Assembly (NCBI GenBank): GCA_024276825.1
Contig: JAJRWI010000033.1
Coordinates: forward strand, 90,614-154,613
Source: an archaeon
GTDB lineage: Archaea > Asgardarchaeota > Thorarchaeia > Thorarchaeales > Thorarchaeaceae
Reading direction: 5' to 3'
Length of the DNA: 64,000 nt
Shown: piece by piece, positions 11,414 to 39,812 of the stretch
Layout of the letters: the number at the start of each line of letters is the position of its first letter
Position numbering within the stretch: the stretch's first letter is position 1
The notes under the pieces: generated by a model
The model's input: only the letters and a program-made list of their open reading frames with translations
Databases searched by the model: none
What the model was told of the DNA's origin: nothing
Translations under genes and position numbers: made by a program

Positions 11414-11440
11414 TAATAAAAAGGAGTTTGATGGCACCAT
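11414..11440 (-). promoter_or_regulatory. hyd promoter: ATGGTGCCA-N10-TTTTATTA
   Basis: Same motif and spacing at 20150-20176 and 25644-25670. Confidence 0.6.
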
Positions 11441-11519
11441 TTCACCGTACGGGTCAGAAAGATTATAACCCAAAATGAATTTACGCCAGCGTTAGAACCA
11501 GAGCTTGGAGAACCTCTCA

Positions 11520-14500
11520 ATGGTCAGCGAAGCGGTGCAAAAACCTGATAGCAAATCAAAACCAACTGACGTTGTGATCATTGGAGCAGGAATGGCTGGT
11601 ATCAATGCGGCCATTGACCTTGCCGAAGGTGGTCATCACGCTCATCTCATTGAGCGTACGGTCAATATTGGTGGTAAGTATGTGGCAATTTACAAGGTCT
11701 TTCCAATGCTTGAGTGCTCAGCATGTGTTATGACCCCCCTCACCTCTTATGTTGGTAAGCATCCAAACATCACAATACACGCACTCTCCGAGGTTGTCAA
11801 GGTCTCAGGGAGCAAAGGCAACTTCACAGTGACCATTCGTAAGAGAGCCCGCTATGTCAATGAGGACAAATGTACGGGTTGTGGTCTCTGTGTCCGTGCC
11901 TGTCCTGTTGAAGTGCCGAATGAATATGATCGCGGTCTCTCATTGAGAAAAGCAATCTACTTTAACTTCCCTCAACAGATCCCTCTTATTGCGACCATTG
12001 ACAGAGATGCATGTATTGGATGCGGTACTTGTGCTGGGGTCTGCCCTCAAGATTGTATAAACTATGAGGACCAAGACAAAGAATATGAGATTAATGCTGG
12101 TTCTATAATTGTTGCAACTGGTTTTGACGAGTACGAGCCCTTGGACTATGCTGAGTATGGCTATGGCATTTTTCCAAATGTGGTCACCTCTCTACAATAT
12201 GACCGCCAGACTCATCCCACTGGCCCAACTGATGCTCATATGGTACGACCATCAGATGGTAAAGAACCCACAAGGATATTGTTTGTCAACTGCGTTGGAA
12301 GCAGAGATGTGCGAGAGGCAATCAATGGCTATAGCAAACATTGCAATCGCGTCTGTTGCTCCTTCGGGCTCAAGCTGGCACAAGTCACAAGAATGCACTA
12401 TCCAGAGGACCATTGCGAAATAATCTATACTTACATGGACATGCGGACAGCTGGAAAGGCATTGGAAGAGTTTCTCTGGGACTCTCAACACAACCAAGGC
12501 ATCAAGTTTATCCGCGGCAGGGTGGCAGAGGTTTACGAGGACCCTGACACACATGACCTCTCAGTAAAGTTAGAAGACACAGAAACTGGAGAGATAATGG
12601 AGATCAAAGATGTATCAATGATGGTTCTTAATGCAAGTTTCAGACCCGCCAAGGACCTTGATAATCTGGCAAAGATATTGAAGATAGATCTTGATGATAC
12701 TGGTTTTGTGAAGGAGTCGCACCCTAACGCACATGCTCTAGAAACCACAAGGCCTGGCATATTTGTTGCAGGTTGCGCTCATGGTCCAAAAGATGGCACT
12801 GACACAGTAAATGAAGGCAAGGGTGCCGCAATGGCAGCACATTCTATCCTGCCGATTCCACCACCTCCAGAACCAGAGGACATTCCGCCTGCGGAAATCG
12901 CTGATGAGCCAAGAGTTGGAGTCTTCATCTGTCATTGTGGAGGCATCATTGGAAATGTCATTGATTCCCCAGGATTGGCTGAATGGGCTAAAGGTCTTCC
13001 AAATGTGGTTTATTCCACAGATTACATCTTCATGTGCAGCGACCCAGGACAAGAACTCATAACGAAGGCAATTCGAGAGCATAAACTGAATAGGGTTGTT
13101 GTCGGATCATGTTCACCTCTTCAGCATGAGGCTACCTTTAGGCGTGCCCTTGAAGCAGCAGGCCTCTCACAGTATTATTTTGTGGGGCCCGCAGGGCTCA
13201 GAGAGCATCTCGCACTTGTGAATGCCAATGCACCCAAGGAAGAAAGGCAAAAGAAGGGTCAAGACCTTATTCGCAGTGCAGTTGCTAAAGCGATCAATAA
13301 TGAAATAGTTCCTGTCAAGTCATTGGAGGTGGTACGGACCACCATGGTTGTGGGTGGTGGGGTTTCAGGAATGACAGCGGCTCTTGACATTGCCAAAAAA
13401 GGCTTCAATGTGATCCTTGTTGAAAAGGAAGACCGATTGGGCGGTCGCTTGAATGATCTATACAACGTATTCCCCCAACTATTGAGCGCTCAAGAGATTG
13501 TTGAGGACTTGGTTTCACGGATTGAAAAGAGCAAGCGAATCAAAGTATTATTGAAAAGCAAAGTGGTTGCCAGAGATGGGTCTTATGGGAATTATAAGAT
13601 AACCGTGGAGAACACCCAAACTGGTGAACAGTTGACTTATGATATTGGGTCCATGGTGATAACAGTAGGGACCGATACATATGAGCCAAAACCTGGCGAA
13701 TACGGCTATGGTGAGGTGCCTGGAGTAATCACAACCCTTCAACTTGAACGAATGCTGCGGAATGGTGAGTTGAAAGAACCACCAAAGAACCCAGTGTTCA
13801 TCCATTGTGTTGGATCAAGACAAAATCCGGGTGAGGGCAATCGCTATTGTTCACGTGTGTGTTGTTCTGCTGTTATCGCAATGCAACATGAATTACGAGA
13901 GATGTTTCCAGACATCAGGATATTCTCCGCCTACAAAGAACACATCAGACCCTATGCCAATAAGATGGAAGAGATGTGGCGTGAAAACCGGCAGAATGGT
14001 GTGTCATACCTCCGCTGGATACGAGATCGCCCCGTGACCGTTAAGAAGGACCCCGATGGCGATGGTGCGATAGTGACGATTTATGATACTCTCTTACAGG
14101 AAACTCTCAGAATCAAGTCTAACATGGTCGTATTGGCGGTAGGCTTGGAAGCCCCTCATGATATTGATGAGATTGTCAGGGCTCTTGGAATCAACAGGGG
14201 TCAGGATGGTTTTTTGCTCGAGATGCATATGAAGTACCGCCCAGTGGACACCACAGTGCCTGGTGTGTTCTTGGGGGTGACCTATGCAAAGAATATTGCT
14301 GACTCGGTCAATCAGGCCCGTAGTGCTGCAAGTGCTGCCACAATTCCTCTTAATCTGGGCACTGTGGAGATCGAGCTTCTCACAGCCGAAGTCGATCAGG
14401 AACTATGTGTGGGTTGTGATCTATGTCACTACTCAGAGATATGTCCATATGATGCCATAAGCATGATAGAGATTGAACCTGGAGTGAAGAAGAGTGTGAC

Positions 14501-14624
14501 TGACGAGTTAAAGTGTGAGGGCTGTGGTGCATGCTGTGCAATCTGTCCTACAGGTGCCCGCGACTTGCGTTGGTGGCGTGAGAAGAGTCTTCTTGAAGAG
14601 ATAGAAGCCATGTTGAAGGAATAG
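11520..14624 (+). CDS. hdrA: Heterodisulfide reductase subunit A-like, double flavin-domain form (HdrA1)
   Basis: Two GxGxxG Rossmann folds, inserted 2x[4Fe-4S], two CVGSR..C..VCC motifs, internal RVGVFICHCG domain, C-terminal ferredoxin. Confidence 0.93.
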   Translation: MVSEAVQKPDSKSKPTDVVIIGAGMAGINAAIDLAEGGHHAHLIERTVNIGGKYVAIYKVFPMLECSACVMTPLTSYVGKHPNITIHALSEVVKVSGSKGNFTVTIRKRARYVNEDKCTGCGLCVRACPVEVPNEYDRGLSLRKAIYFNFPQQIPLIATIDRDACIGCGTCAGVCPQDCINYEDQDKEYEINAGSIIVATGFDEYEPLDYAEYGYGIFPNVVTSLQYDRQTHPTGPTDAHMVRPSDGKEPTRILFVNCVGSRDVREAINGYSKHCNRVCCSFGLKLAQVTRMHYPEDHCEIIYTYMDMRTAGKALEEFLWDSQHNQGIKFIRGRVAEVYEDPDTHDLSVKLEDTETGEIMEIKDVSMMVLNASFRPAKDLDNLAKILKIDLDDTGFVKESHPNAHALETTRPGIFVAGCAHGPKDGTDTVNEGKGAAMAAHSILPIPPPPEPEDIPPAEIADEPRVGVFICHCGGIIGNVIDSPGLAEWAKGLPNVVYSTDYIFMCSDPGQELITKAIREHKLNRVVVGSCSPLQHEATFRRALEAAGLSQYYFVGPAGLREHLALVNANAPKEERQKKGQDLIRSAVAKAINNEIVPVKSLEVVRTTMVVGGGVSGMTAALDIAKKGFNVILVEKEDRLGGRLNDLYNVFPQLLSAQEIVEDLVSRIEKSKRIKVLLKSKVVARDGSYGNYKITVENTQTGEQLTYDIGSMVITVGTDTYEPKPGEYGYGEVPGVITTLQLERMLRNGELKEPPKNPVFIHCVGSRQNPGEGNRYCSRVCCSAVIAMQHELREMFPDIRIFSAYKEHIRPYANKMEEMWRENRQNGVSYLRWIRDRPVTVKKDPDGDGAIVTIYDTLLQETLRIKSNMVVLAVGLEAPHDIDEIVRALGINRGQDGFLLEMHMKYRPVDTTVPGVFLGVTYAKNIADSVNQARSAASAATIPLNLGTVEIELLTAEVDQELCVGCDLCHYSEICPYDAISMIEIEPGVKKSVTDELKCEGCGACCAICPTGARDLRWWREKSLLEEIEAMLKE

Positions 14625-14633
14625 GTGTCATGT

Positions 14634-15200
14634 ATGGTCACACTTGATGGACTATATGCAGCTTGGCATGTGCTTAATGAACTGCTTGGTGAACTGAATG
14701 GCAATGGTGTATTCATCCCAAAGTTCACTTATGCAGACATGCGTAATGCCAAGATGATGATTGAATATCTCCGCTCATTCGATGAAGACATCCAGAGCTT
14801 TCAGAGGAGTGAAACTGATATCCGTGAAGAAATGGAAGGCAAAATGTCAAGTCTAAGAGAATCACTGATGGTCTGGGCTGAGGAGAACCAAGGACTCGAA
14901 TACAGGCAGAATTGGGAGCATCGCTTTGAGAAGGCGCTTCATGGCGAAGCTGTTGATATTGTCATTGAAGAACAAGTCCCAATATCTGATATCCCCCGAG
15001 AGAGGGATGTGGGCTTTTTCAGAATCAGACTACCTGATGAAATTCCTGTGGAGGTCATCTCAGAGATTGCCGAGGACTGCAGAGTAATAATCTCGCTTGA
15101 CGGCGAAAGACATCTACAAGTCAGCGGCAAGAAGGAATGTGTACGCGATGCCATGCAGCGTCTGGGCGAACTGTTCTATGGTGAGAGCCGATTGGACTGA
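14634..15200 (+). CDS. DUF2096-like protein (helical N-domain plus small C-terminal alpha/beta domain)
   Basis: W.VL.EL..EL...G..IP..Y.DMR.AK pattern recalled from methanogen DUF2096; follows the hdrA stop directly. Confidence 0.6.
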   Translation: MVTLDGLYAAWHVLNELLGELNGNGVFIPKFTYADMRNAKMMIEYLRSFDEDIQSFQRSETDIREEMEGKMSSLRESLMVWAEENQGLEYRQNWEHRFEKALHGEAVDIVIEEQVPISDIPRERDVGFFRIRLPDEIPVEVISEIAEDCRVIISLDGERHLQVSGKKECVRDAMQRLGELFYGESRLD

Positions 15201-15245
15201 GTTCTGACTTGTGATTATGATTGTAATACTTGCCTTGTCTTGACA

Positions 15246-16121
15246 TTAGATCCCAAGTATATCGCTTACAGGATCAAGAGAGATTCTGTCCAGTTCGAGC
15301 CCGAGCCGTTCTTCATCAAGTCCCATGGCAAGACCCAAGATCTGAGTCACAAACAAGGCAGGGAGTTCTAGCGATTCACCATTTTCATCAGTCAATCCAA
15401 GGGCCTGAACATCATACTGGGTATGACAGGCGGGACAGTTGGTCACAACACAGTTAGCACCTGAGGCTTTTGCATCGGCAAGCTTCTCCTTTAATATCCT
15501 CGTTGCCACATCCTCGCTGGCAATCAAGAGCGGTGAACCACAGCATCTGAGTTTCAGGTTCCAAGGAATACTCTTAGCCCCGGTCAACTCAATCAACTCA
15601 TCAACTTTGCTGGGCAACTCGGGATCATCGAACCCTGCAACTTTGGACGGCCTTAGGAGATGGCATCCAGGATGAAATGCAACCTTGAGCCCTTCAAGTG
15701 GTTTCACAATCTTTGAGGCAATCTCGTCCTTCAAGTCATAAAGGACCTCTACAAAGTGTCTTATCTTGGACTTGCCCGTATACTCGAGCCCAAGCTCTTT
15801 GAGCACCTCATTGACGGCCTTTCTCTGTTCCTCCTCGGTATGTAGAACATGATCGACATCCTTTAGTGAGCCAAAGCAGCCGTTGCATGGCGTAACAATG
15901 TCATGTCCTCTCTTCTCGGCGAGTGCAATGTTTCGACCAGACATTGAAAGCCAGCTGTACTCATCAATTGACTTGAGCACAACAGTACCACAGCAGGTTG
16001 CACCATCAAAGTCAAGAAGCTTTATGTCTAGAGCCTCTGCGACGGCTCGCATGCTGCTCTCATAATTATTGAATCGATTCGGAATCGCACATCCAAGAAA
16101 GACCTCGTATGTCTTGTTCAT
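15246..16121 (-). CDS. hdrB: Heterodisulfide reductase subunit B (copy 1)
   Basis: FLGC, TCCG, TPCNGC, HPGCH, RCCG, NCPAC. Confidence 0.93.
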   Translation of the reverse strand: MNKTYEVFLGCAIPNRFNNYESSMRAVAEALDIKLLDFDGATCCGTVVLKSIDEYSWLSMSGRNIALAEKRGHDIVTPCNGCFGSLKDVDHVLHTEEEQRKAVNEVLKELGLEYTGKSKIRHFVEVLYDLKDEIASKIVKPLEGLKVAFHPGCHLLRPSKVAGFDDPELPSKVDELIELTGAKSIPWNLKLRCCGSPLLIASEDVATRILKEKLADAKASGANCVVTNCPACHTQYDVQALGLTDENGESLELPALFVTQILGLAMGLDEERLGLELDRISLDPVSDILGI

Positions 16122-16640
16122 TTATTCCTCCTCCTGTAGCTTCAAGAGCCTAGTCTTGTCCAATAACTTCTTCACATCATTGATGTCAAACTCGGGAACA
16201 TCATCAAGTTCCAAGTCTTCACGTTCCCAGTCTGTGGGCTCATAGAGTCGTCCATTATTATACAAACCCTGAGCAGCAGCAACATAACCGGGTGGCGCAA
16301 TCCCTTTTCTATAGGCCATGTTCTTCAGACCAAAGAGAATGTCCGTAATGTCTATTCCCTGTGGACAACGCTCCTGACAAGTATAGCAAGTCGTGCATAA
16401 CCAGATCATGTCGGTTTCTAAGACCTCCTCAAGACCAAAGAGAAGCATTCTCATGACCTCATGAATCTGGATGTTCACTTTATCACTGACGGGGCATCCC
16501 CCACTGCACTTGGCGCATTGAAAACATGCAGTCAGGTCTTGCCCGCCGATGAGTTCGGACACCTTCTTTGTGAATTTGGCGTCCAGCTTTTTGAATGTCA
16601 TTCCCTCAAAAGATTTGAATCGGCCCCAACTCTCGGTCAT
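16122..16640 (-). CDS. hdrC: Heterodisulfide reductase subunit C (copy 1)
   Basis: CFQCAKCSGGCP, WLCTTCYTCQERCP. Confidence 0.93.
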   Translation of the reverse strand: MTESWGRFKSFEGMTFKKLDAKFTKKVSELIGGQDLTACFQCAKCSGGCPVSDKVNIQIHEVMRMLLFGLEEVLETDMIWLCTTCYTCQERCPQGIDITDILFGLKNMAYRKGIAPPGYVAAAQGLYNNGRLYEPTDWEREDLELDDVPEFDINDVKKLLDKTRLLKLQEEE

Positions 16641-16642
16641 GA

Positions 16643-19600
16643 TTATCTCCTCCTCGGCCTAAGTGGGCTTGGCCCAAGCTTCTCAACGAGTTCCGTGAGT
16701 TCTTTCACTTTCTCTGCATATATTGGCCCCTCACTTGCGCTAATATGTGTGAATTGAAGTCTCTCAGGTTCAAGTCCTGCTTTTTCAATAATCTTCTTGG
16801 CAATCATGTATCTTCTCTCGAATGCTATATTTCCATCAACATAATGGCAGTCTCCAACATGACACCCTGATATCCAGACCATATCAGCACCTAACCTGAA
16901 TGCCTCTAGAATATGAGTCACACTGACCCTTCCAGTACACATCACCCTGATATCTCTCACAGCGGGCGGCTGTTGAAGCCTTGCAACGCCCGCCGAGTCT
17001 GCGCCTGCATAGGTACACCAGTTGCACATTATCGTGAGAATGCGAGGTTCATTTGGTGGCAGGTCTTCAAGAGCACTCCTGACCTGAGCCATTATCTGAT
17101 CATCTGTGAAGTGCTTCATGGTGATTGCCCCCGCTGGACAACCTGCAGCGCATTTGCCGCAACCTTGGCAGAGAACCGGATTTGACACCGCATAATCATG
17201 AGATCCATCGCCTGGTACCACTGCAATCGCATTGTATGCACAGTTGATCTCACAGGTGCCACAGCCAACACATACCTCTGGATCAACCACTGAAACTATG
17301 GCCTCTGCCTTTCTCACACCTTTAACCAGCGGAATCAATGCGCGCATGGCAGCACCCTGTCCCTGTGCCATGGCCTCATTGATGCCTTTGGGTGCAGTAG
17401 CTGTACCTGCAACAAAGACACCATCTGTCTGAAAGTCAATGGGCCGAAGCTTGGGGTGGGCCTCCATGAAATATCCTGACATATTTAGTGAGAGTTTGAA
17501 CAACTCCGAGACCTCTTTGTTGGACTCGTGTGGGACCATTGCAGTTGCCAGAACTACATGATCCACATCTAGCTCAAGGGTTGCACCAAGCACCTGATCC
17601 TTAACAGTGACGGTCAGGGCTTTGTCTTTACCCTTCTTCACAACTGGTGGTTCATCCTTGTCAAACCTGATGAACACGGCTCCCTTTTTTCTGGCCTCCC
17701 TGTATTTGTCCTCAACATTGTAGGGGGCACGAAGGTCCCTGTACAAATGAAACACCCGTGAGTCAGGATATCTATCAAGAAGCTCTAGTGTATGCTCTAG
17801 GGCGACAGTACAGCAGACTGATGAGCACCATGTTCTTGAGCCCTCAAGGGACTCGTCCTCACGTGAGCCTGCACAATGAATCACAACGAATGTTTCACCG
17901 TTTTTAATCCCATCTTCCTCAATCACCCTCCTGTTGAACTCTGCCTCGGTCATCACCTCTGGGAGCTTCTTCAGGCCATAGAGCCCCTCCTCCTCAAGCA
18001 TGGTTGCACCAGTAGCAACAATAATGACTCCGATCTTTATCTCCTTCTCCTCATCATTGGTGTTGACTATGACATTGAAATCTCCGATGGCTCCTTTCGA
18101 TGAAACAACCTGGGAGTTCAGCATCAATTCGATGTTTGCATTACTCTCAATTTTCTTCTCATATTCACTGATCAACTCTTCAGTGGACCTGCTGTCAAAA
18201 TTAACAGTCTTCACCCTGTTGAGAAAGCCTCCGACCCTGCTCTCTCTCTCAACCAGATACACCTTGTAACCCTTATTGGCAATAATCTCTGCTGCGGTCA
18301 TCCCTGCGACTCCCGCACCAATTACCAGTGCCATGGGAGCTATCTCGGTGATCGCCTCCTCCTGAGGTTCAAGAATTGTCGCTCTGGCCACTGCCATTCT
18401 GACAAGGTCCATGGCCTTCTCTGTGGCCTCATCCTTTTCAGTCTGATGAATCCATGAGCAATGCTCGCGAATATTGGCAAGCTCAAACAGATACTTGTTC
18501 AGCCCTGCTTCCTCAATTGTGGTTCTGAACAGTGGTTCATGAGTCCTTGGAGTACATGATGCAACAACAACTCTGTTCAGCTTGTGTTCCTTTATGGCCT
18601 CCTTGATCACGACTTGCGAGTCTGAAGAGCATGAATAGAGCAGGTTCTCAGCATAGACCACATTGGGCAGAGTGCTTGCGTATTCGGTCACACGGGCGAC
18701 ATCCACAGTGCCAGCAATATTGATTCCGCATGAACAGATAATGACCCCTATCCTGGGCTCTCCTGCCATCAACTCCAAATCTTGGCCCTCAATTGTATCG
18801 GTCTTCGAGTATGCCTTTGGTGTAGCAATGTCCATGGCAGCCAGTGCCGCAGCAGCACTGCCCTGAGCAACAGAATCAGGAATGTCCTTGGGTGCATTGC
18901 ATGTTCCACACATATGCACACCCTCCACACCGGTTTCAGTAAGGAGAAGACCTCCATTCTGTGCTGGAATGAAGCCATATTTGTCAGTCTTTATTCCAAT
19001 GCTCTCAAACAGCTTGCTGTTGTCCGTTGGAATCATTGCAGGACATAGAACAACAAGGTCATACCTGTCAATCAGGACCTCGTGTTCCTTTGCATCAACA
19101 TGCTTGATGATAAGGTCATGGGTGGTAGGGTCCTCATGAATCTCACTTGGGAGCCCCTTGACATAGTTTATGCCATACTCTGTCTCTCCGCGTACAATAA
19201 ACTCCTCGAAGCCCTTACCAAAGACTCTCATATCATTGAATAAAATGTCAATGTGCACCTCTGGAGTGTGCTCCTTTGTGATTATTGCCTCCTTTGTGGC
19301 ATAAGTACAGCAGATCTTAGAGCAATATGCGCAGTGATTCACGTCCCTACTCCCAACGCACTGAACGAATGCTATACGATGAGGCTCGCGACCATCAGAG
19401 GGTCTCATGACCACGCCGCTGGTTGGTCCGCTTGCAGACACCATTCTCTCATATTCCAGTGATGACACAACATTTGGGAATCTACCATAACCATACTCTG
19501 GAACTGTCGCGGGATCTATCAACTCAAACCCCGTTGCAATAATTATTGAACCCGCATTGACCTCGATGGTCTCATCAGTGAATGCCTCAAAGTCAATCGC

Positions 19601-20110
19601 TTTTGCCTTGCAAGTCTTAACACACATCATACACTGGATGCAATTTTCAATGTCAATTGTTGCTACATTGGGCACTGCTTGTGGGAATGGGATATATGCC
19701 GCCTTTCTCATCTTTAGACCCATGTCATACTCGTTTGGGACCTCAATAGGACATATCCGCTCACAGTCCCCACAACCTGTGCACTTGTCAGGATCTACCC
19801 TTCTGTTCTTTTTGAGAATCTTGACATTGAAGTTTCCACGCTTGCCAGAAACCTCGATGACCTCTGAGTATGACATGATCTCAATGTTTGGGTGTCGTGA
19901 ACAATCAACCATCCATGGCCCCTGAATACACATTGCACAATCAAGCGTGGGGAACGTCTTATCTAGTTGTGACATGTGTCCACCAATTGATGGTTGCCTC
20001 TCAACCAGATAGACCTTGACTCCCATTTCCGCCAGATCTAATGCAGCTCGCATTCCCGAGATGCCAGCTCCGACAATCATAACGGGCTTTGTTTCTGACT
20101 CAGCCATCAC
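16643..20110 (-). CDS. hdrA: Double-domain HdrA fused to C-terminal MvhD (HdrA2-MvhD)
   Basis: KTFPTLDCAMC, ANIREHCSW, two Rossmann folds, C-terminal CNWCTYAGAD..RVMCTGRV..GCHVGDCHY. Confidence 0.95.
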   Translation of the reverse strand: MMAESETKPVMIVGAGISGMRAALDLAEMGVKVYLVERQPSIGGHMSQLDKTFPTLDCAMCIQGPWMVDCSRHPNIEIMSYSEVIEVSGKRGNFNVKILKKNRRVDPDKCTGCGDCERICPIEVPNEYDMGLKMRKAAYIPFPQAVPNVATIDIENCIQCMMCVKTCKAKAIDFEAFTDETIEVNAGSIIIATGFELIDPATVPEYGYGRFPNVVSSLEYERMVSASGPTSGVVMRPSDGREPHRIAFVQCVGSRDVNHCAYCSKICCTYATKEAIITKEHTPEVHIDILFNDMRVFGKGFEEFIVRGETEYGINYVKGLPSEIHEDPTTHDLIIKHVDAKEHEVLIDRYDLVVLCPAMIPTDNSKLFESIGIKTDKYGFIPAQNGGLLLTETGVEGVHMCGTCNAPKDIPDSVAQGSAAAALAAMDIATPKAYSKTDTIEGQDLELMAGEPRIGVIICSCGINIAGTVDVARVTEYASTLPNVVYAENLLYSCSSDSQVVIKEAIKEHKLNRVVVASCTPRTHEPLFRTTIEEAGLNKYLFELANIREHCSWIHQTEKDEATEKAMDLVRMAVARATILEPQEEAITEIAPMALVIGAGVAGMTAAEIIANKGYKVYLVERESRVGGFLNRVKTVNFDSRSTEELISEYEKKIESNANIELMLNSQVVSSKGAIGDFNVIVNTNDEEKEIKIGVIIVATGATMLEEEGLYGLKKLPEVMTEAEFNRRVIEEDGIKNGETFVVIHCAGSREDESLEGSRTWCSSVCCTVALEHTLELLDRYPDSRVFHLYRDLRAPYNVEDKYREARKKGAVFIRFDKDEPPVVKKGKDKALTVTVKDQVLGATLELDVDHVVLATAMVPHESNKEVSELFKLSLNMSGYFMEAHPKLRPIDFQTDGVFVAGTATAPKGINEAMAQGQGAAMRALIPLVKGVRKAEAIVSVVDPEVCVGCGTCEINCAYNAIAVVPGDGSHDYAVSNPVLCQGCGKCAAGCPAGAITMKHFTDDQIMAQVRSALEDLPPNEPRILTIMCNWCTYAGADSAGVARLQQPPAVRDIRVMCTGRVSVTHILEAFRLGADMVWISGCHVGDCHYVDGNIAFERRYMIAKKIIEKAGLEPERLQFTHISASEGPIYAEKVKELTELVEKLGPSPLRPRRR

Positions 20111-20149
20111 TGATTACACTCCAGAGTGTTTGCGAACGGATAACTTGCG

Positions 20150-20176
20150 TGATAAAATGTTTATTGTTGGCACCAT
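20150..20176 (-). promoter_or_regulatory. hdrA-mvhD promoter: ATGGTGCCA-N10-TTTTATCA
   Basis: Identical 9-mer and spacing to the hyd promoter. Confidence 0.6.
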
Positions 20177-23136: not shown

Positions 23137-24135
23137 GTGAGAAGTATGGAGCCCAAATACATTCTACTGCTAAGCTTGATTGCTCTCCTCATATCTGCTG
23201 GACCCCCATATGACATTATAGCCCAAGACACAGATGACATTGTGTTTGAAGACACCAAGATCCAACTGGTCCTTCATGTTAACGGCACTACCATCATCAA
23301 TTTCAAGACTCTAGTAAAGAACTCGGGATTGCAGCCCATCTCCACACTCACAATAAGGGTCGATGTAAGATCACTAATAATGATCAATGCCGCCTTTAAT
23401 GACAAGCCTGTTGAAGCTTCAATTGTCAATGCTGACAGATATTCAATGATCAGTATTACCTTGTCTGAAATTCTTGCATCAAATGAAACTGGTTCTCTTG
23501 AGATAGATCTATCTACAAGAGATATTCAGGAAGAATACAGCCTAGACTATGAGCGCTCCTTATCACTTCAACATATCATCTTCTACATTCGCCCAACGCA
23601 TCTGATTCAACATCTATCAGTTTCTATTGCATTACCTCCTCATGCAGTTCTTGACACTCAGAGTTCATCGTTAATATATCCTACTCCTTCCCAAAACCAC
23701 ACTGACGGCACTCGAATGGTATTTACTTGGGACTCTGGGCCGATATTTCCCGGTCAAGAGTCTGTGTTCATTGTGAAATTTGGTCTACCAATAACAAATC
23801 TCGATGCAAACACTAGCACTAACTCGTTAATCTTGCCTCTTAGCATCACTTTCATACTTGGAGCTCTCTCATTCATAATTACACAAAGGCTCCACCAGTT
23901 CATCAAATCTCTGAAGATGAAACCAATACACAGTCTTCCACTCAGCAAGCAGGATAAGATGGTACTTGAATTCATAATCAAGAAGGGAGGTTCTTGTTCA
24001 CAACGAGTGATTTACGAAGAACTGGACATGTCGCAATCGATGACAAGCATGATTCTCTCGAGCCTAGAAGAACGTGGCCTTATCAGACGGCTTAGAGAAG
24101 GGCGAATGAATATGGTCCATATCATTGAAGAATAA
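23137..24135 (+). CDS. Membrane-anchored transcriptional regulator (extracellular beta domain-TM-wHTH; COG2512-like)
   Basis: Signal peptide, beta-rich domain, TM, C-terminal GG.CSQ..I...L.MS....S.IL..LEERGLIRR.REGR. Confidence 0.82.
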   Translation: MRSMEPKYILLLSLIALLISAGPPYDIIAQDTDDIVFEDTKIQLVLHVNGTTIINFKTLVKNSGLQPISTLTIRVDVRSLIMINAAFNDKPVEASIVNADRYSMISITLSEILASNETGSLEIDLSTRDIQEEYSLDYERSLSLQHIIFYIRPTHLIQHLSVSIALPPHAVLDTQSSSLIYPTPSQNHTDGTRMVFTWDSGPIFPGQESVFIVKFGLPITNLDANTSTNSLILPLSITFILGALSFIITQRLHQFIKSLKMKPIHSLPLSKQDKMVLEFIIKKGGSCSQRVIYEELDMSQSMTSMILSSLEERGLIRRLREGRMNMVHIIEE

Positions 24136-24145: not shown

Positions 24146-25060
24146 CTATGTCTTCAGGCCAAGCCGTTCCCAGTTGGGTTCGCTCTTCCTCTGCATGTAC
24201 TGCAGATGTGTTGACAGTCCGAACTCCTCAGGCTCATGACCAAAAGCAAGTGCAAGTAACTCCACAACATGCAATATATCAAACTGGTAATCCAGATCAA
24301 AATGCTTCTTTATCTCTACCTGTCCAAGGTCCAGTTGTAACTCACAGAATGGGCATGGTGTCACAATAATATCTGCGCCACCTGCCTCCAATAGACTATT
24401 GAACTTCTGTTTTGTGAAGTCCAACGCGACCTTTACATCTGCAGTCCTCACAGCGCCTCCTGCACCACAGCAGATGAGTTCATCCTTATATGGAACATAT
24501 GTTGCACCTGAAGTCTCGCATAACTCTCTGAAAATGTGAGGTCTCTCAGAATTGTCCTTCTGCTTTAAAGCCGCTGGACGCATCCAGTGGCAGCCTGGGT
24601 GCAATGCCATTCTTACGCCGGTCAGTGGTCGTGTGACATGCTTACGAATCTTCTCAAGACCCGCAATTGAATAGAGGGCGTCAACATAATGAGTGACCTC
24701 TATACTCCCCTTGAACTCACGATTGATCTCAGCAAGATTATCATTAACAGTCTTCATCAATTCCTCATCATGCTTCAACTCGTGATTGGCATCCCAGAGA
24801 CTTGCAAAGCAACCGTTGCATCCAGTGGTAATCGGGTGCCCTCCTGCTTCTGCGATTGTCAGGTTTCTAGCGGCAATTGTTGCCCATGTGACCCTGTCAA
24901 AAGAACCAAACACTCCTGGTGCGGGACAGCAACTTGCACCCTCCATGTCAAGAAGTTCTAAACCAAGATCTTCAAACACAATACGAGCGGCCTTCTCAAT
25001 GCTAGGATATCTATGTGGAATGATGCAACCAAGAAAATGGTAGAACTTGTGCTTTGCCAT
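24146..25060 (-). CDS. hdrB: HdrB (copy 2, methanogen-type CCPAPG)
   Basis: FLGCIIPHRYP, SCCPAPG, CNGC, HPGCH, CCGAGG, CPFC. Confidence 0.95.
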   Translation of the reverse strand: MAKHKFYHFLGCIIPHRYPSIEKAARIVFEDLGLELLDMEGASCCPAPGVFGSFDRVTWATIAARNLTIAEAGGHPITTGCNGCFASLWDANHELKHDEELMKTVNDNLAEINREFKGSIEVTHYVDALYSIAGLEKIRKHVTRPLTGVRMALHPGCHWMRPAALKQKDNSERPHIFRELCETSGATYVPYKDELICCGAGGAVRTADVKVALDFTKQKFNSLLEAGGADIIVTPCPFCELQLDLGQVEIKKHFDLDYQFDILHVVELLALAFGHEPEEFGLSTHLQYMQRKSEPNWERLGLKT

Positions 25061-25062
25061 AT

Positions 25063-25605
25063 CTATTCCTCCTTTGGTGCGATGAGCTTGTCGAAGCCGC
25101 TCTTCTTGGCCAACTTCCTTATCTCCTCAATTGTCTCATGATATCTGCTTGCATTTGGTGGTACTGGCTCAAGACCGACTTTTTCTCTAAGTTTCTGCCA
25201 TGACTCTTTATCAAGTGGTACTGCATGACCGGCTTCAAGGACTTTCAGTGCTACACTCTGGTGTGGCTTTAACATATGGCCCTCTGCAACAGCAATGTTT
25301 CTGATGGCCTTGATAACATCCGTAGGCTTGACATCCTGTGGACATCTGTCAGTGCAGGTATAACAAGTAGTACAGTACCAGAGTTCTGGGGCTGATATAC
25401 ACTCTTCCTTCAGACCAAGTAATGCCTTTCGAATGATGAGTCTGACAAGATAGTTGGTTCTGGCACCAGCAGGACAACTCCCGCTACAGGTCCCACACTG
25501 ATAACACGATTGAATATTGGGACCACCAACACGTTTTATCATCTCCACAAATTCCCTGTCTGTGGAGTCTATATCTATTGTAGACCTGTCTTCTGCACTT
25601 GCCAC
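25063..25605 (-). CDS. hdrC: HdrC (copy 2)
   Basis: CYQCGTCSGSCP, LWYCTTCYTCTDRCP, GHAVP; likely GTG start at 25605. Confidence 0.93.
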   Translation of the reverse strand: MASAEDRSTIDIDSTDREFVEMIKRVGGPNIQSCYQCGTCSGSCPAGARTNYLVRLIIRKALLGLKEECISAPELWYCTTCYTCTDRCPQDVKPTDVIKAIRNIAVAEGHMLKPHQSVALKVLEAGHAVPLDKESWQKLREKVGLEPVPPNASRYHETIEEIRKLAKKSGFDKLIAPKEE

Positions 25606-25643
25606 GATGTCCACCGACTGTGGATTGCACACAGAATTTCAGC

Positions 25644-25670
25644 CTTAAATTCATTGCCAATTGGCACAAT
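25644..25670 (-). promoter_or_regulatory. hdrC2 promoter: ATTGTGCCA-N10-AATTTAAG, overlapping palindrome TGCCAATTGGCA
   Basis: 8/9 match to the ATGGTGCCA box with similar spacing; 12-bp palindrome at 25655-25666. Confidence 0.5.
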
Positions 25671-25701
25671 ATTCATCAGAACAAATTACCCTAATTATTC
25701 A

Positions 25702-26772
25702 ATGAGATGTGCATTTCATCCCAACCGCCTTACATCGCGAGCAATTGGTGTATGCTCTGAATGCCTGAGTTCCAATCCGTCCAGCATGAATCAATCTCTT
25801 GAAACTCACAGGCGACTGAGAGCACGACTGGGCCTTGTTGAAACTATACATGGTCATGGACAGATTGTATGCTCCGAATGCGGAAACCATTGCAGACTCA
25901 ATAATGGTGATGTTGGCTTCTGTAATCTGCGAATCGCTAAGAATGGCATAATTGAGGAACGCTTCAAGGAAAAGGCAATAGTTTCATATTACTATGATCC
26001 GCTGCCTACAAACTGTGTGGCTGACTGGGTGTGTCCATGTAAGACCGATGGACTACTTGATAGCAACCATCGTTTCAATAACTTGGCTGTGTTTTATGGT
26101 TCCTGTAATTCTGACTGTCTGTTTTGTCAGAATGCGAGTTATCGTGACATGATGGCTAAAGGGAGGTCTCTCATGACCCCTCATGCACTTGCAGAGGCTG
26201 CTAATGAAAGGACTGCCTGTGTCTGCTTCTTTGGTGGGGATCCATCCTGTAATGCTGCCCATTCGATTGCAGTGTCCGAGTTCCTCATTCACCATGGAAT
26301 AAAGGTCTGTTATGAAACCAATGGAATAATCTCACGAAAATGGTTAAAGATAATGGCAGATGTAGTCATCAGGAGTGGAGGCACATTCAAGATTGATCTG
26401 AAGGCTTATTCTTCAAACATATACAAGGCATTGACAGGAGTTTCAAATACTGTTGTCTTGAATAATTTTCGAAGACTTGCAAAGATTGGTAGGGGACTGA
26501 ATCATACATTTCTGGTGGCAAGCATTCTACTAATACCCGAGTATGTGTCTGTTGATGAGGTGCAGCGTCTCTGTGAGTTCATTGCATACTGCGACCCTAC
26601 AATTCCAACTGCACTACTCGGTTTTGCTCCTCATCTTGCCATGTCCGATTTACCACGGACTAGTCGTGCACATGCATTCAGAGCCAAGGAGGTTGCTGAA
26701 GAGGCTGGACTTGAAAATGTGCGTATTGGCAACCTTGCTCTTCTGTCGAAGGCGGACTATGTGTTTGAATAG
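25702..26772 (+). CDS. Radical SAM enzyme (PflA/AmmeMemoRadiSam-like, COG1180)
   Basis: CNSDCLFCQN, FFGGDP, ETNG, IDLKA; Cys-rich N-terminus; likely start ATG 25702. Confidence 0.88.
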   Translation: MRCAFHPNRLTSRAIGVCSECLSSNPSSMNQSLETHRRLRARLGLVETIHGHGQIVCSECGNHCRLNNGDVGFCNLRIAKNGIIEERFKEKAIVSYYYDPLPTNCVADWVCPCKTDGLLDSNHRFNNLAVFYGSCNSDCLFCQNASYRDMMAKGRSLMTPHALAEAANERTACVCFFGGDPSCNAAHSIAVSEFLIHHGIKVCYETNGIISRKWLKIMADVVIRSGGTFKIDLKAYSSNIYKALTGVSNTVVLNNFRRLAKIGRGLNHTFLVASILLIPEYVSVDEVQRLCEFIAYCDPTIPTALLGFAPHLAMSDLPRTSRAHAFRAKEVAEEAGLENVRIGNLALLSKADYVFE

Positions 26773-28301: not shown

Positions 28302-28317
28302 TATACTGCAATCACCA

Positions 28318-34613: not shown

Positions 34614-34709
34614 TTCTACATATCTTGCAAGCAATTGACGAATCTTACTGAAGATAACTGAACTTTACTTTCCCCATCTGACCAAACTTTACCATCTAAA
34701 AACATGAGG

Positions 34710-34949: not shown

Positions 34950-35040
34950 ATCATGTTATAAAGAGCTAAACGCATGGTTTTTATTTAGATGGGTTTCCCT
35001 ATCGACCAAGTCTGAACAAACACAGGGCGCCGGTGAATGA

Positions 35041-35598
35041 ATGACAAGATATGAGATTCGCATTGGAGGATTTGGTGGCCAAGGGATAGTTACGATGGCG
35101 GTTGTATTGGGCGAAACCCTCTCTCTAATCGAAGGTAGGGAGTGTGTCCAGACGCAGAGCTATGGTCCTGAGGCAAGGGGCGGCGCCAGCAAGAGTGAGA
35201 TTGTCATAGATGATGATGAGGTGGATTATCCCAAGGTGCAAGAGCCTGATGTCTTTGTTGCAATGAGCAGAGCTGCGTACCTAGAATACATTCATGGACT
35301 CAAGGAAAATGGCATTCTAATAATAGATGAGGACCTTGTAGAGATAGAAAGTGCTCTCCCGAAAGGCGTCAAGGTTTACGAGATTCCCGCTACTCGGATT
35401 GCTGACATGGAGGTTGGTAATAAACAGACCACTAATGTTGTCATGCTTGGAGCTCTTGCCGTCATAACAAAGATAGTATCGACTGAGGGCCTGAAGAAGC
35501 GAGTAGAAGAGCGGTGGCCTCGGTTCAAGGAGGCGAACCTGAAAGCCCTAGAACTGGGCATCAAGGCCGGAGAACAGGCCTTGGCCCAGCAAGGATGA
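35041..35598 (+). CDS. korC: 2-oxoacid:ferredoxin oxidoreductase gamma subunit
   Basis: GFGGQG, QSYGPEARGGAS, NVVMLGA. Confidence 0.95.
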   Translation: MTRYEIRIGGFGGQGIVTMAVVLGETLSLIEGRECVQTQSYGPEARGGASKSEIVIDDDEVDYPKVQEPDVFVAMSRAAYLEYIHGLKENGILIIDEDLVEIESALPKGVKVYEIPATRIADMEVGNKQTTNVVMLGALAVITKIVSTEGLKKRVEERWPRFKEANLKALELGIKAGEQALAQQG

Positions 35599-35620
35599 AA
35601 CATAGACTCTTAAGCATCAC

Positions 35621-35992
35621 TCATCTGATAATCATATCATCACGACTGAGGAATGCCATCTCGAACTCGGCAGATAGTTCCAGTACGGAACGTGGACAGG
35701 ACTCAACACACTGAGCGCATAATATACACCTGTCAAAGTGGCAAATGGGTCTCCAGCCCGTTTTTGTCTGGATATCATCGGGACCGCACTCCACCATCTC
35801 AATTGCACTACTGGGACAGACACGTTCGCAGATCTTACAGCCAGTGCACCTGTCTGGGTTCTTGTAGGTCCACCTTCCACGAAGTCCGACTGGGATGTTT
35901 AGGCCTTCCTTCGTAAATGGATAGATCACAGTAGCGGGCTTTTTCTTGATACTCTTCAGGAGTTCCTTTTCCATGGCACCAAGTCTAGACAT
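35621..35992 (-). CDS. NuoI/EchF-like 2x[4Fe-4S] subunit
   Basis: PATVIYPF, GLRG, CTGCKICERVCP, CILCAQCVESCP; start overlaps the upstream stop (TAATG). Confidence 0.9.
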   Translation of the reverse strand: MSRLGAMEKELLKSIKKKPATVIYPFTKEGLNIPVGLRGRWTYKNPDRCTGCKICERVCPSSAIEMVECGPDDIQTKTGWRPICHFDRCILCAQCVESCPRSVLELSAEFEMAFLSRDDMIIR

Positions 35993-37083
35993 TAAACAAT
36001 CACCCCGAGTATTGGAAATATGTAAACTATTGCAAGTTGCACGAGAAGCAGGTTCACAAGGGCCAGAGGCACCATGAACTTCCAGCCGTAATGAACAATC
36101 TGATCGATTCTCCAGCGTGCAAATGCGGTCCTCATGTTGCTCAATATCATCACAACGATGATGGACTTGAACATAAACACAAGAGTGTAGTAGACCCACC
36201 CAATCCATGATGTCTGCATGAGGGTGGCAAAAGTGACCGAGAACACATCGAGCGGAATGAACTCGAGAAGATATGGTCCTCCCAGAAACAGGGATGTGGT
36301 GATACCAGCAGCAAACACCAGCATGATGTCCTCAGCCATATGAATGAGTGCTAGCTTCTTTCCGCTGAACTCGACCTGCCAGCCGTGAACAATCTCCGTT
36401 TCAGCATGACTAACATCAAAGGGAATCCTCTCAAGTTCCGCCTGTATTGATATCAAGAATATTACAAGTGGTAGGATGAGCAGGAGTGCATAGGGTATAT
36501 TGAGAGTCTTCAGACCCTCCATAATTGTTGATATTCTAAGGCTCCCCGTGAGGATGGCTGGAGTGACAATTGCAGCAATCAGTGGGATCTCAAAACTGAT
36601 CAGGAGCATTCCAGTCCTTGCAGAACCTACCTGTCCAAATGGATTGGATGAGAAGTATCCTGCGAGCATGATCACTGCGACGAGCATTGATGAGAGGAAG
36701 AGTAAGAGTATGAGGTCTCCCTCAAAGCTCAGGATTCCTTGGATCCCTGGCAATGATGGGTCCATATCCACAATCGGAATAAACATGCATAGTGTGATGG
36801 ATAGAACTAACATGATCACAGGCACGGCTGAGAAGCTCCTCTTGTCAGCCCTTTTGGGTGTAAGGTCCTCCTTACCGAGAAGCTTGAGAAAGTCCATCAG
36901 GGGCTGAAGTATCCCTTGCCAGCCTGTATGGAGCGGACCTATTCTGTTCTGCAATCGAGCATATACCTTTCTATCAATCCATTCCCAAAGTAGTGCGAGG
37001 AATGTGATGAAGAATATTCCTGGGAATAGTAGGACCCAAAGGCCCCAAATCAAAATGTCTAAGAACTGCAATGTCTGCATCAT
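35992..37083 (-). CDS. NuoH/MbhM-like membrane subunit
   Basis: DRKVYARLQNRIGP, QPLMDFLKLLGKE, RIPFDVSHAETEIV.G..VEFSG. Confidence 0.93.
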   Translation of the reverse strand: MMQTLQFLDILIWGLWVLLFPGIFFITFLALLWEWIDRKVYARLQNRIGPLHTGWQGILQPLMDFLKLLGKEDLTPKRADKRSFSAVPVIMLVLSITLCMFIPIVDMDPSLPGIQGILSFEGDLILLLFLSSMLVAVIMLAGYFSSNPFGQVGSARTGMLLISFEIPLIAAIVTPAILTGSLRISTIMEGLKTLNIPYALLLILPLVIFLISIQAELERIPFDVSHAETEIVHGWQVEFSGKKLALIHMAEDIMLVFAAGITTSLFLGGPYLLEFIPLDVFSVTFATLMQTSWIGWVYYTLVFMFKSIIVVMILSNMRTAFARWRIDQIVHYGWKFMVPLALVNLLLVQLAIVYIFPILGVIV

Positions 37084-38309
37084 TAGAACTTCCCACCATT
37101 CTGTCTGTACCATTTGTTTGCTCTCACTCTCATGATGTCTAAAGGCACTGACTCTATGAGGTTGTCATCTGTATCGACTATTGTGACTCTGTCAGTGCAG
37201 CTAAAGCAGGGATCGATGGCTGCAAGAATTATAGGAGCATCTGCAAGATAGTTCCCAATCAGGGTGTGTCGCATTGACACCCAGTTCGCATGTGTTGGTG
37301 CACGGACCTTCCAACGTTCTGGCTTGTCTGTTCCGTTTGTCACAAGATAGTGAACTACCTCGCCCCGTGGGGCCTCATATCTTGCAAGGACCTCGTTTGG
37401 CTGAACTCTTGGACGCACCCTCTCTCTGATTGGTCCATCTGGAAGGTTCTGAAGGAGCCATCTGCACATCTTGATCGACTCTATGGTTTCAACCACTCTG
37501 ACAATAGCTCGACCAGCAACATCACACCTTTCTGAGAGTATCATCTCAAACTCGCCCGAGTCGCGAAGATGCACATAGGCCTGCGTTGGGTCATTGAAAC
37601 GAACATCCACTGGGACATTGCTTCCTCTGGCTGTGGGACCCACTGCACCAGTGGCCCTGGCAACGGAGGTTTCCAAGACACCCACCCCATCCACTCTGTT
37701 CCAGAATGTCTTCTCCTGAATTGCGACATCGCGATAGTATATCATCCTCTCTTCTAGCTTGTCAAGCCTCGTTAGTAGACTTGATCTGAGTTCCTCTGAC
37801 ACATTTCTTCGGACTCCACCAATAGTGTTCATCGAATAGTTCACACGATTGCCACTAAGGTCCTCAAGCATGTCCATTACTATCTCTCTGTCGCGCCATG
37901 AGTACATGAATGCAGTGTCAAACCCGACCTCGTGAAATGCAACTCCCAGCCATAGAATATGTGAGTGAATTCTCTCTAGCTCCCAAGTCAATGTTCGTAT
38001 GAACTTGGCTCGTTCTGGAATCTCAACCTCTGCTGCCATCTCAACAGCCTGAGCATAATTGCCATTATGTGTTGCAGAACAGATACCACAGATTCGTTCT
38101 GCAAGGTATAGGACCTGAAGGTGTGTCTTACTCTCTGCTAGCTTTTCTATCCCTCGATGATTGTAGCCAATATTCACTTCAGCATCTACAATCCTCTCAC
38201 CCTCAATTGTAAGCTTGAACATTCCAGGTTCTTTGAGAGCTGGATGCTGTGGCCCGATTGGGATTGTCACTCTTGGAGGTGTGACTGTCTTTCTGTTTCC
38301 TGTTGACAT
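37083..38309 (-). CDS. Group 4 [NiFe]-hydrogenase large subunit (NuoD-like)
   Basis: GPQHPAL, HRGIEK, L1 ERICGICSATH, EAPRGE, L2 DPCFSCTDR plus C-terminal extension. Confidence 0.93.
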   Translation of the reverse strand: MSTGNRKTVTPPRVTIPIGPQHPALKEPGMFKLTIEGERIVDAEVNIGYNHRGIEKLAESKTHLQVLYLAERICGICSATHNGNYAQAVEMAAEVEIPERAKFIRTLTWELERIHSHILWLGVAFHEVGFDTAFMYSWRDREIVMDMLEDLSGNRVNYSMNTIGGVRRNVSEELRSSLLTRLDKLEERMIYYRDVAIQEKTFWNRVDGVGVLETSVARATGAVGPTARGSNVPVDVRFNDPTQAYVHLRDSGEFEMILSERCDVAGRAIVRVVETIESIKMCRWLLQNLPDGPIRERVRPRVQPNEVLARYEAPRGEVVHYLVTNGTDKPERWKVRAPTHANWVSMRHTLIGNYLADAPIILAAIDPCFSCTDRVTIVDTDDNLIESVPLDIMRVRANKWYRQNGGKF

Positions 38310-38310
38310 T

Positions 38311-38868
38311 CTATTTTACCTCCTTTGGTCCTGTTGTCTGCGATCGTTTCATCAGACCTCTGGGGTCTTGCCAGTCCTTCCTGAGCGGGAATTCATCCGC
38401 AGGCCAGTTCTCCGGCAGCTCACACCTTCTCGGGTTCGGATGACCCACTGGAACAAGCCCGAACATCTCACGAAGCTCGTTTTCAACAAACTCGGCGGCT
38501 GGTACAATGTCCGTTATTGACTGGTACTCTGGCATTGTGCGGGGGACATTGATTCTGATAGTCACCGCAATCTTCTTGTCATTGATAAAGAAGTGATAAT
38601 TGGCCTGCAAATCATTTCCAAGGTCTCTACCAGATAATGTACTGAACTGCCACATCCCATGCTTCTCTTGCATGTACTTTACGAAATCTCTCAGCTTGTC
38701 AGGCCGGATCTGAATAAAGACTCGTCGCGGTTGAATGTGAACATATGTGCCTTCCTCGATTATTATATCTCCCATTTCAGACTTTATCTGGTTGAGCAGA
38801 GCATATTCATCCTCATGACCCTCTTCTAGTGCCGGTCTGAAAATTGACACATTATCCTGATTACTCAT
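38311..38868 (-). CDS. NuoC/MbhK-like subunit
   Basis: SITDIVPAAEFVENELREMFG..GHP, FPLRKD. Confidence 0.9.
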   Translation of the reverse strand: MSNQDNVSIFRPALEEGHEDEYALLNQIKSEMGDIIIEEGTYVHIQPRRVFIQIRPDKLRDFVKYMQEKHGMWQFSTLSGRDLGNDLQANYHFFINDKKIAVTIRINVPRTMPEYQSITDIVPAAEFVENELREMFGLVPVGHPNPRRCELPENWPADEFPLRKDWQDPRGLMKRSQTTGPKEVK

Positions 38869-39383
38869 GTTTCTGCAACTCCCTCGCTCTGTGCTGCAGT
38901 AATGTCAAAGGGTACCTCCTCTTTCTCCTTTTTCTCGGCAACTCCAAACGCTTTTGATAGCACTTCTAGGAGCTTGTATGCACCAAATGTGATTGCGGTG
39001 GGCTTCGGCGGACAACCAGGGATATATGCAGTCACTGGAATAGCTTGGTCAACACCGCCTAGCACATTATAGCCCCCGCGAAAGACGCCTCCACTACATG
39101 CACAAGACCCCACAGCCACAACAAACTTGGGCTCAGCCATCTGTTCATAGATGCGTTGAAGTCTGGGCCTGATCTGTTCAGTCACAGGTCCCGTAATCAA
39201 CATGATGTCCGCATGACGTGGACTTCCCACAAGCTTTACTCCGAAACGTTCAAGGTCAAGCCGGGGCATGAGCGCTGCCAGTATCTCGATGTCACAACCA
39301 TTGCAACTACCAGAGTTGAAATGGAACACATACGGCGATTTTACTCGTGCTTTATTGATCAGTTTCTGGAGGAACCCCATCAA
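38865..39383 (-). CDS. NuoB/MbhJ-like hydrogenase small subunit
   Basis: SCNGCDIE (CxxC type), SPRHAD, GSCACSGG, IPGCPP. Confidence 0.93.
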   Translation of the reverse strand: MMGFLQKLINKARVKSPYVFHFNSGSCNGCDIEILAALMPRLDLERFGVKLVGSPRHADIMLITGPVTEQIRPRLQRIYEQMAEPKFVVAVGSCACSGGVFRGGYNVLGGVDQAIPVTAYIPGCPPKPTAITFGAYKLLEVLSKAFGVAEKKEKEEVPFDITAAQSEGVAET

Positions 39384-39384
39384 T

Positions 39385-39726
39385 CTACCTCCCGAAGTCC
39401 TTTGGCTTGGATGAGATGTAAGACGCGGCCACTAGCGTGATGATCAGGTAAAAGATCACCATTATACCTGGGTTTGCCCAAGAGAGAAATAGCATGAATC
39501 CAACCACTTCAAAGGCCATGAAATACATGGCATAGTTGAACAGTTCAAGGTTGAATTGCACTTTGCCGCCAAGAAACGACGGTTCTCCGCATGCATAAGA
39601 CTCAACCGCTGCTCCTTCAGTCCGGGCCTTCGGTGCAACGGACCGGCCCAAAAGTAGCAATATTCCAGCAAACACTATGCTCAACACGAGCACGAGGATC
39701 ATTCCAATTACAAGGTCCAAGTCCAT
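39385..39726 (-). CDS. NuoA-like 3-TM subunit
   Basis: YACGE loop, FNYAMYFMAFEV; likely start ATG 39726 or GTG 39729. Confidence 0.85.
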   Translation of the reverse strand: MDLDLVIGMILVLVLSIVFAGILLLLGRSVAPKARTEGAAVESYACGEPSFLGGKVQFNLELFNYAMYFMAFEVVGFMLFLSWANPGIMVIFYLIITLVAASYISSKPKDFGR

Positions 39727-39812
39727 CACCCATGTATGCTGCCGACGCCCGTCCGCACTGCAATCCATTAATATGCTTGTTGATAGTGACCATCAGATTA
39801 TCATCTATCAGA

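Follow-up and report, generated by a model that had tools for sequence, protein, structure and literature searches.

Does a nine-base sequence that recurs upstream of hydrogenase and heterodisulfide-reductase (Hdr) genes in the genome of an uncultured Thorarchaeota lineage mark the site of a shared regulator? We examined this question in a 64,000-nucleotide (nt) window (G000:C24:90614-154613, where G000 is this genome; positions below are those of the window unless another contig is named), which holds a gene cluster encoding a [NiFe] hydrogenase of group-3b type together with two double-HdrA proteins, one of them fused to MvhD, and several HdrCB pairs. An earlier note on this DNA had described a box, ATKGTGCCA, lying 10 nt upstream of the TATA boxes of three redox operons (hyd, hdrA-mvhD and hdrC2) and, in weaker form, before a group 4 hydrogenase, and had proposed that one activator controls the H2/Hdr genes as a new regulon. 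We arrive at a narrower answer. The box would be a short, cluster-specific cis-element just upstream of the B recognition element (BRE), unusually uniform in this genome and a putative regulator site; we place the probability of this reading at roughly 45%. The identity of the full nine bases is peculiar to this genome, and there is no regulon beyond the Hyd-Hdr cluster.

Syntrophy models of eukaryogenesis give a central place to the hydrogen and Hdr metabolism of Asgard archaea. A shared Hyd-Hdr cis-element, if true, would provide a handle for finding the regulator, would support the view that the group-3b hydrogenase and the double-HdrA proteins form one co-expressed unit, and would be among the first cis-regulatory signals described for these archaea. 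The analysis also carries a caution, namely that an exact repeat, however striking, may suggest more signal than there is: the part that seems to matter amounts to 5-6 bases and not 9.

The cluster promoters and the nine-base box

Genes were called in the 2.94-Mb genome (82 contigs, 43.6% G+C) with a simple model of codon usage and Shine-Dalgarno sequences, which yielded 2,738 genes and a coding fraction of 89%. Pfam assignments bore out, in broad terms, the gene names given previously. The operons concerned, all assigned with Pfam, are:

7368-11372, minus strand: group-3b-like [NiFe] hydrogenase operon (hyd), four genes
11520-14624, plus strand: hdrA2, a double HdrA, divergent from hyd
15246-20107, minus strand: HdrA-HdrA-MvhD, HdrC and HdrB (hdrA-mvhD operon)
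24146-25605, minus strand: HdrC2-HdrB2 (hdrC2 operon)
35621-39720, minus strand: NuoA-B-C-D-H-I-like module

The promoter features upstream of them are:

11432..11440, minus strand: Box 1, ATGGTGCCA, with the core GTGCCA at 11432-11437, between the divergent hyd and hdrA2 promoters; the core fits the family-wide consensus
11414..11421, minus strand: hyd TATA box TTTTATTA, TTG start at 11370-11372, Shine-Dalgarno GGGAGG at 11380-11385
11461..11468, plus strand: hdrA2 TATA box GATTATAA, of which GACAGAAAGATTATAT is kept in orthologues
20168..20176, minus strand: Box 2, ATGGTGCCA, with the core GTGCCA at 20168-20173, before hdrA-mvhD
20150..20157, minus strand: hdrA-mvhD TATA box TTTTATCA, ATG start at 20105-20107, Shine-Dalgarno GGAGTG at 20117-20122
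25662..25670, minus strand: Box 3, ATTGTGCCA, with the core GTGCCA at 25662-25667, before hdrC2
25644..25651, minus strand: hdrC2 TATA box AATTTAAG, GTG start at 25603-25605
39767..39793, minus strand: weak fourth site, ATGGTCACT-N10-ATATTAAT, before the nuoA-like gene; its TATA box is real and conserved

All four strings quoted in the earlier note are present exactly at these minus-strand positions. The full arrangements read ATGGTGCCA-N10-TTTTATTA (11440..11414), ATGGTGCCA-N10-TTTTATCA (20176..20150) and ATTGTGCCA-N10-AATTTAAG (25670..25644), so that the three copies of the box are identical over 8-9 bases. The spacing of "exactly 10 nt" holds for the 8-mer register that had been chosen; measured to the TTTA core of each TATA box, the gaps are 11, 11 and 12 nt.

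An expectation-maximisation search for a general TATA/BRE matrix drifted to a junk motif, and word-based TATA definitions were used instead. Throughout the genome, TATA-like words are 4-6x enriched 25-80 nt before gene starts and GGAG/GGTG words peak 10-15 nt before starts, and ACAA, with its end 5 nt ahead of the TTTA core, makes up the generic BRE-like signal (CAA, 27 vs 8.7 expected, p=5e-7). Orthologous upstream regions were then collected from the family and from metagenomes for hdrA-mvhD (n=56), hyd (n=14), hdrC2 (n=27) and the nuoA-like gene (n=10). In all four groups the best-conserved block was the TATA 8-mer named in the earlier note. Its weighted identity to this genome was 0.88-0.92 (0.92 for hyd over 14 sequences, 0.91 for hdrA-mvhD over 56 and 0.88 for hdrC2 over 27), and the nuoA-like TATA box was kept in 10 orthologues. 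The orthologues also corrected two start codons: hdrC2 begins at GTG 25605 (25603-25605) and not at 25632, and the nuoA-like gene begins at TTG 39720 and not at ATG 39768, which would fall within the TATA box. With these corrections all four TATA boxes lie 40-50 nt before a start codon that has a GGAG/GGTG Shine-Dalgarno sequence in front of it, a layout typical of this genome. Judged by this conservation and layout, the hyd, hdrA-mvhD and hdrC2 sites can be regarded as genuine archaeal BRE/TATA promoters, in agreement with the earlier reading.

Part of what had been treated as spacer is itself conserved. At hdrA-mvhD the spacer ACAATAAACA belongs to a BRE-proximal block, ACAAnAAAC, with an identity of 0.66 over the 56 orthologous promoters, and at hdrC2 the spacer ATTGGCAATG corresponds to a conserved element TTTGRCAATG (identity 0.71, 27 orthologues).

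The fourth site did not hold up as a member of the set. Its box matches at 6/9 positions, which is indistinguishable from chance, and is not kept in orthologues, where AACCAYCAAG adjoins the TATA box instead. We do not count the group 4, or complex-I-like, operon as a member.

A degenerate core shared by four promoter families

Part of the evidence for a real element comes from relatives. Position matrices were built from the orthologues of the three families with this genome omitted, and then with the whole genus omitted and the hdrA2 family added. In the first comparison ATGGTGCCA scored 5.6 (hdrA), 5.9 (hyd) and 6.3 bits (hdrC2), with the maximum at the observed register +/-1; ranked by minimum score over the three families, ATGGTGCCA came 27th and ATTGTGCCA 9th among 262,144 9-mers. 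At registers further upstream no 9-mer shared by the three families exceeded 4.1 bits. With the genus omitted, the consensus sequences at -17..-9 were TTGTCCGAT (hdrA), TAGGTCCAT (hyd), ACGGCCATT (hdrC2) and CTTGGCCAT (hdrA2), and the best 7-mer common to the four families was GTGCCAT, starting at -16 relative to the TATA 8-mer and scoring 5.71 bits. This 7-mer is the 3' part of the box first described, recovered here from the other genera.

None of 300 column permutations reached 5.71 bits (mean 3.6, standard deviation 0.4; p<0.003). A stricter null, in which bases were relabelled and the positional conservation profile was kept, gave a mean of 4.04 (standard deviation 0.64), with 2% of trials reaching 5.71 bits. 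Trios drawn from the four families scored 5.9-7.3 bits, compared with 4.1-4.5 bits for trios that included a control family, either S-adenosylhomocysteine hydrolase (AdoHcyase) or thermosome. All four families have their CC maximum at -13/-12 (33-65%), whereas the controls peak elsewhere. Three further families were unusable as controls: korC has another gene directly before it in 27 relatives, GS1 has few orthologues, and at the TBP gene anchoring is ambiguous owing to several TATA boxes in tandem. It should be borne in mind that orthologous sequences are not independent and that a shared local G+C bias upstream of the BRE would inflate the similarity.

Overall, the core can be written as GKnCCA[T], or loosely as ATGG-N0-2-CCAT. 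It is weak and occupies -16..-10 relative to the TATA 8-mer, before the BRE-like ACAA; the proposed position just upstream of BRE/TATA, typical of archaeal activator sites, is thereby upheld. The 9-mer as such is not kept at orthologous promoters (identities 0.28, 0.31 and 0.43); what the four families have in common is this core (p<0.003 to 0.02).

Since a GTGCCA-like core recurs at the same place in relatives, the box may be a local regulator site. The operons of the cluster have canonical archaeal promoters, with a BRE-like ACAA followed by the TATA box, then a leader put at roughly 20 nt from the TATA-to-start distance, and a Shine-Dalgarno sequence. At hyd, hdrA-mvhD, hdrC2 and, in relatives, hdrA2, a short, weakly conserved element lies about 10-16 nt upstream of the TATA 8-mer, at an estimated -40 to -46 from the transcription start and just upstream of the BRE. 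This element would most likely be the site of a transcription factor dedicated to the Hyd-Hdr cluster, which may contact or recruit TFB/TBP. Binding by a protein is our inference; the position favours activation, with repression the other possibility. In its most specific form, which we put forward only tentatively, a novel Asgard transcription factor would co-regulate the hydrogenase/Hdr (putative electron-bifurcating) cluster via an ATGG-N0-2-CCAT-like element one helical turn upstream of TATA. Of the single activator proposed earlier for the H2/Hdr genes, what stands is a weak core at the same register in hyd, hdrA-mvhD, hdrC2 and hdrA2; the group 4 operon and the genome-wide reach fall away.

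GTTn3AAC is the motif of SurR, and the sequence of the box is unlike it. In the window GTTN3AAC occurs 15 times against 12.6 expected and is not enriched, and none lies in the four promoter regions; SurR-type control of the cluster promoters through this motif was accordingly rejected. The SurR regulon of Thermococcales, which provides redox/sulfur-responsive control of hydrogenase genes (PMC12162507), resembles our proposal in the idea of one regulator coordinating hydrogenase and energy-metabolism operons from sites near BRE/TATA, and differs in that there is no genome-wide regulon here. Archaeal activators are known to recruit TBP/TFB from positions directly upstream of BRE/TATA, as at the EarA sites of the Methanococcus maripaludis fla promoter and the Sulfolobus ara-box (PMC5512572). 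The Thorarchaeota box likewise is a short element directly upstream of BRE/TATA of specific operons. The EarA system, however, consists of a known protein and four 6-bp repeats and is proven genetically, whereas the Thorarchaeota box has one copy per promoter. A further parallel is the UV-inducible hexanucleotide of Sulfolobus acidocaldarius, A(N)TTTC, found at -39 to -44 from the transcription start site in 214 promoters and validated with reporters (PMC5817253). It shares with our core a length of roughly 6 nt, a near-equal estimated distance to the transcription start, functionally linked promoters and partial conservation between related species. It differs in sequence and in reach: the Thorarchaeota core is present in only 3-4 promoters of one cluster. 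Our literature search brought up neither a described promoter motif nor an Hdr regulator for Asgard archaea, nor any work on how individual promoters are regulated in this group.

Weighing the element against chance and other readings

A number of observations weigh against a dedicated regulator site. In about 100 orthologous promoters ATKGTGCCA is not conserved as a 9-mer; the weighted identity of the box columns is 0.28 (hdrA), 0.31 (hyd) and 0.43 (hdrC2), compared with 0.25-0.30 in unconstrained flanks, and the 5' half of the box (ATKG) is at background. Within the genus, G001 has ATGGTGACA at hdrA with a spacer of 7 nt and not 10, a difference of 3 nt, and TTATGGACA at hdrC2, while G002 lacks the box at both promoters and has GGGCTGTCA and TTCAGCACC. 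Sharing of the box within one genome is seen only here, with 0/1/1 mismatches vs 2-9 in 24 other family genomes. The core has an information content of only about 5-6 bits and is equalled in score by about 10 unrelated promoters, and the hdrA2 promoter of this genome lacks the core at its own register. The stricter null gives only about p 0.02, with just two control families. The half-sites are separated by 0, 1 or 2 nt (ATGG-TG-CCAT here, GG(T)CCA elsewhere), a variation that one rigid dimer would not easily accommodate. Lastly, no regulator gene is syntenic across the relatives.

Genome-wide counts point the same way. ATKGTGCCA occurs 106 times in the genome against roughly 95 expected (extrapolated from dinucleotide shuffles of the window), and its 11 non-coding copies compare with about 11.3 expected from a non-coding fraction of 10.7%. 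In the window there are 4 copies vs 2.1 expected, a count reached by 15% of shuffles. There was no genome-wide peak at a spacing of 10 from TATA, either with <=1 mismatch (5 vs 1-7 at other spacings) or with <=2 mismatches (41 vs 25-49), and no other promoter in the genome carries the 9-mer at that spacing. The remaining upstream copies stand ahead of genes for an Arf-like GTPase and for unknown proteins and of a thioredoxin-reductase-like gene, in no case with a TATA box at the same spacing. Genome-wide enrichment at a fixed spacing, on which the notion of a regulon had depended, is thus absent.

The strongest competitor is a combination of coincidence and phylogenetic inertia, in which the match of three unrelated promoter-proximal sequences over 8-9 bases is an accident of this one genome, a few slowly decaying inherited bases account for the likeness among relatives, and no protein reads the box. 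We consider this a serious contender, if one that falls short of probable. The absence of any enrichment of the 9-mer fits it well, as do the restriction of box sharing to this genome, the modest p of about 0.02 under the stricter null and the relatedness of sequences within a family, which are not independent. How often such agreement arises by chance depends on the definition of a promoter. When any non-coding TATA-like 8-mer is accepted, identical 9-mers at equal spacing are common (322 pairs within 64 kb, 34 triples). When the TATA box must lie 25-75 nt from a called start, 9 pairs remain together with a single triple in the 2.94-Mb genome, namely the hyd, hdrA-mvhD and hdrC2 boxes. We estimate the chance expectation for promoter-positioned triples at about 0.25 per genome, so the coincidence is unusual, yet not extreme given that very many windows were scanned.

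The 9-mer and its 13-base extension are, moreover, common coding words. The 13-mer ATGGTGMCAWCAA was considered as a genus-level motif and rejected, as its other exact copies in three genomes all fall in long open reading frames (ORFs). With <=1 mismatch it is 4-8x commoner than its reversed control in G000, G001 and G002 (46-64 copies per genome vs 7-14), nearly always in long ORFs; this excess reflects a strong coding-word bias that is able to mimic motif conservation. What coincidence explains less readily is that the three sites, and hdrA2 in relatives, all belong to one functional cluster, that GTGCCAT was recovered at the same register without the genus, and that the control families lack the shared core.

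A generic feature of promoter architecture, such as an extended TFB/TFE contact or a DNA-shape element upstream of the BRE in a subset of promoters regardless of function, appears unlikely. Some counts do lean towards it: among 392 promoter-positioned TTTA cores, CCA ends 13 nt upstream in 13 cases vs 4.7 expected, TGG ends at -16 in 13 vs 4.1, and ATGG in 7 vs 1.2. These k-mer excesses (p 3e-4 to 1e-3) fail correction for 2,304-8,960 tests, which only ACAA at -5 passes. In 280-392 TATA-anchored promoters of this genome there is no comparable C/G or G.CCA signal and the column frequencies at the core register are flat; the element is also missing from both control families, AdoHcyase and thermosome. 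As a genome-wide signal, TGG-N0-2-CCA at the right spacing was tried and dropped, having been found in 6 promoters only, of which the identified non-cluster ones precede fumarase and an unknown protein. With a matrix built from relatives only, the three promoters with boxes take 7th, 13th and 14th place among 1,215, a point in favour of a cluster-specific element. Promoters of unrelated genes score equally high, as a generic feature would predict; these other top matches precede PAC2 chaperone, M50 peptidase, DUF460, DNA methylase, epimerase, inositol-phosphate synthase and fumarase genes, which argues against a wider redox regulon.

That the ATG of ATGGTGCCA opens a short upstream ORF encoding a leader peptide (Met-Val-Pro..., 23 codons at hyd and 20 at hdrA, both frames ending at stops adjoining the main start codons) is very improbable and was rejected, as the ATG is not kept in orthologues and is ATT at the third site, no Shine-Dalgarno sequence precedes it, and the conserved TATA box would fall within the frame. 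This and all other readings together account for a few percent.

Palindromes, neighbouring genes and other promoter elements

Several symmetric sequences lie near the boxes. A perfect 12-bp palindrome, TGCCAATTGGCA, occupies 25655-25666 directly upstream of the hdrC2 TATA box, and the 3' part of Box 3 forms its left arm. It sits between the divergent promoters of hdrC2 and radical-SAM/hdrC3B3; a distant relative, G010, has TACCAATTGGTA in its place, and two others have partial versions. TTGGC-N6-GCCAA overlaps the hdrA-mvhD box of this genome (20165-20185), and in several relatives the hdrA-mvhD TATA box is preceded, at a distance of 50-60 nt, by TTGGCGCCAA-type palindromes or GCGCCAA half-sites. 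One common dyad symmetry was considered and rejected, the three arrangements being different (ATGG-TG-CCAT; TTGGC-N6-GCCAA; TGCCAATTGGCA). In several other genera, TATGTAC/TGTACA repeats stand in tandem, two or three at a time, in the hyd promoter 10-35 nt before TATA, where this genome has the box. GTAC-containing repeats are also present at thermosome promoters.

One gene near the boxes encodes a potential DNA-binding protein:

23137-24135, plus strand: protein with a C-terminal winged-helix domain (MarR/DUF7343), between the hdrA-mvhD and hdrC2 operons

By its position only, this protein is a candidate local regulator. A further candidate DNA-binding protein of the window, a double Lrp/AsnC protein, is encoded at 62522-63712. 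A conserved regulator gene between hdrA2 and hyd in relatives was also sought and rejected, the genes there being variable and unrelated. The longest ORF of the radical SAM gene (25510-26772) overlaps hdrC2. By-eye comparison with orthologues, whose N-terminus reads M-x-C-P-N-H, places its start probably at an ATG near 25702, and this leaves an intergenic region of roughly 100 nt common to the radical SAM gene and hdrC2. A korC-like gene (POR/KOR gamma subunit, 35041-35598) stands alone here with its own TATA-like sequence upstream, and in 27 relatives it comes right after another coding gene, which points to a local rearrangement.

Other promoters of this lineage carry conserved elements of their own. 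Upstream of the AdoHcyase gene (50117-51373, plus strand; upstream region 50017-50090), about 28 orthologous promoters share two TGCA boxes about 20 nt apart (TTGCAY ... GTGCAATNNATTC), which precede a highly conserved GATGTAGGATTCATATAA and look like an operator for a methionine/SAM-cycle regulator. Thermosome promoters have a strongly conserved GAAGT(G/C)CATGTACAGTTTT abutting TATA, duplicated in several genomes and seen at about 7,915-8,036 of G000:C30, upstream of 47688 on G000:C48 and in orthologues; it is likely a heat-shock regulator site. The TBP gene (G000:C19, upstream of 25220) has three to four tandem TATA-like boxes (TTTATAAGG ... CTTATATA ... TATATAAAGG) that are kept across the family and could reflect autoregulation by TBP.

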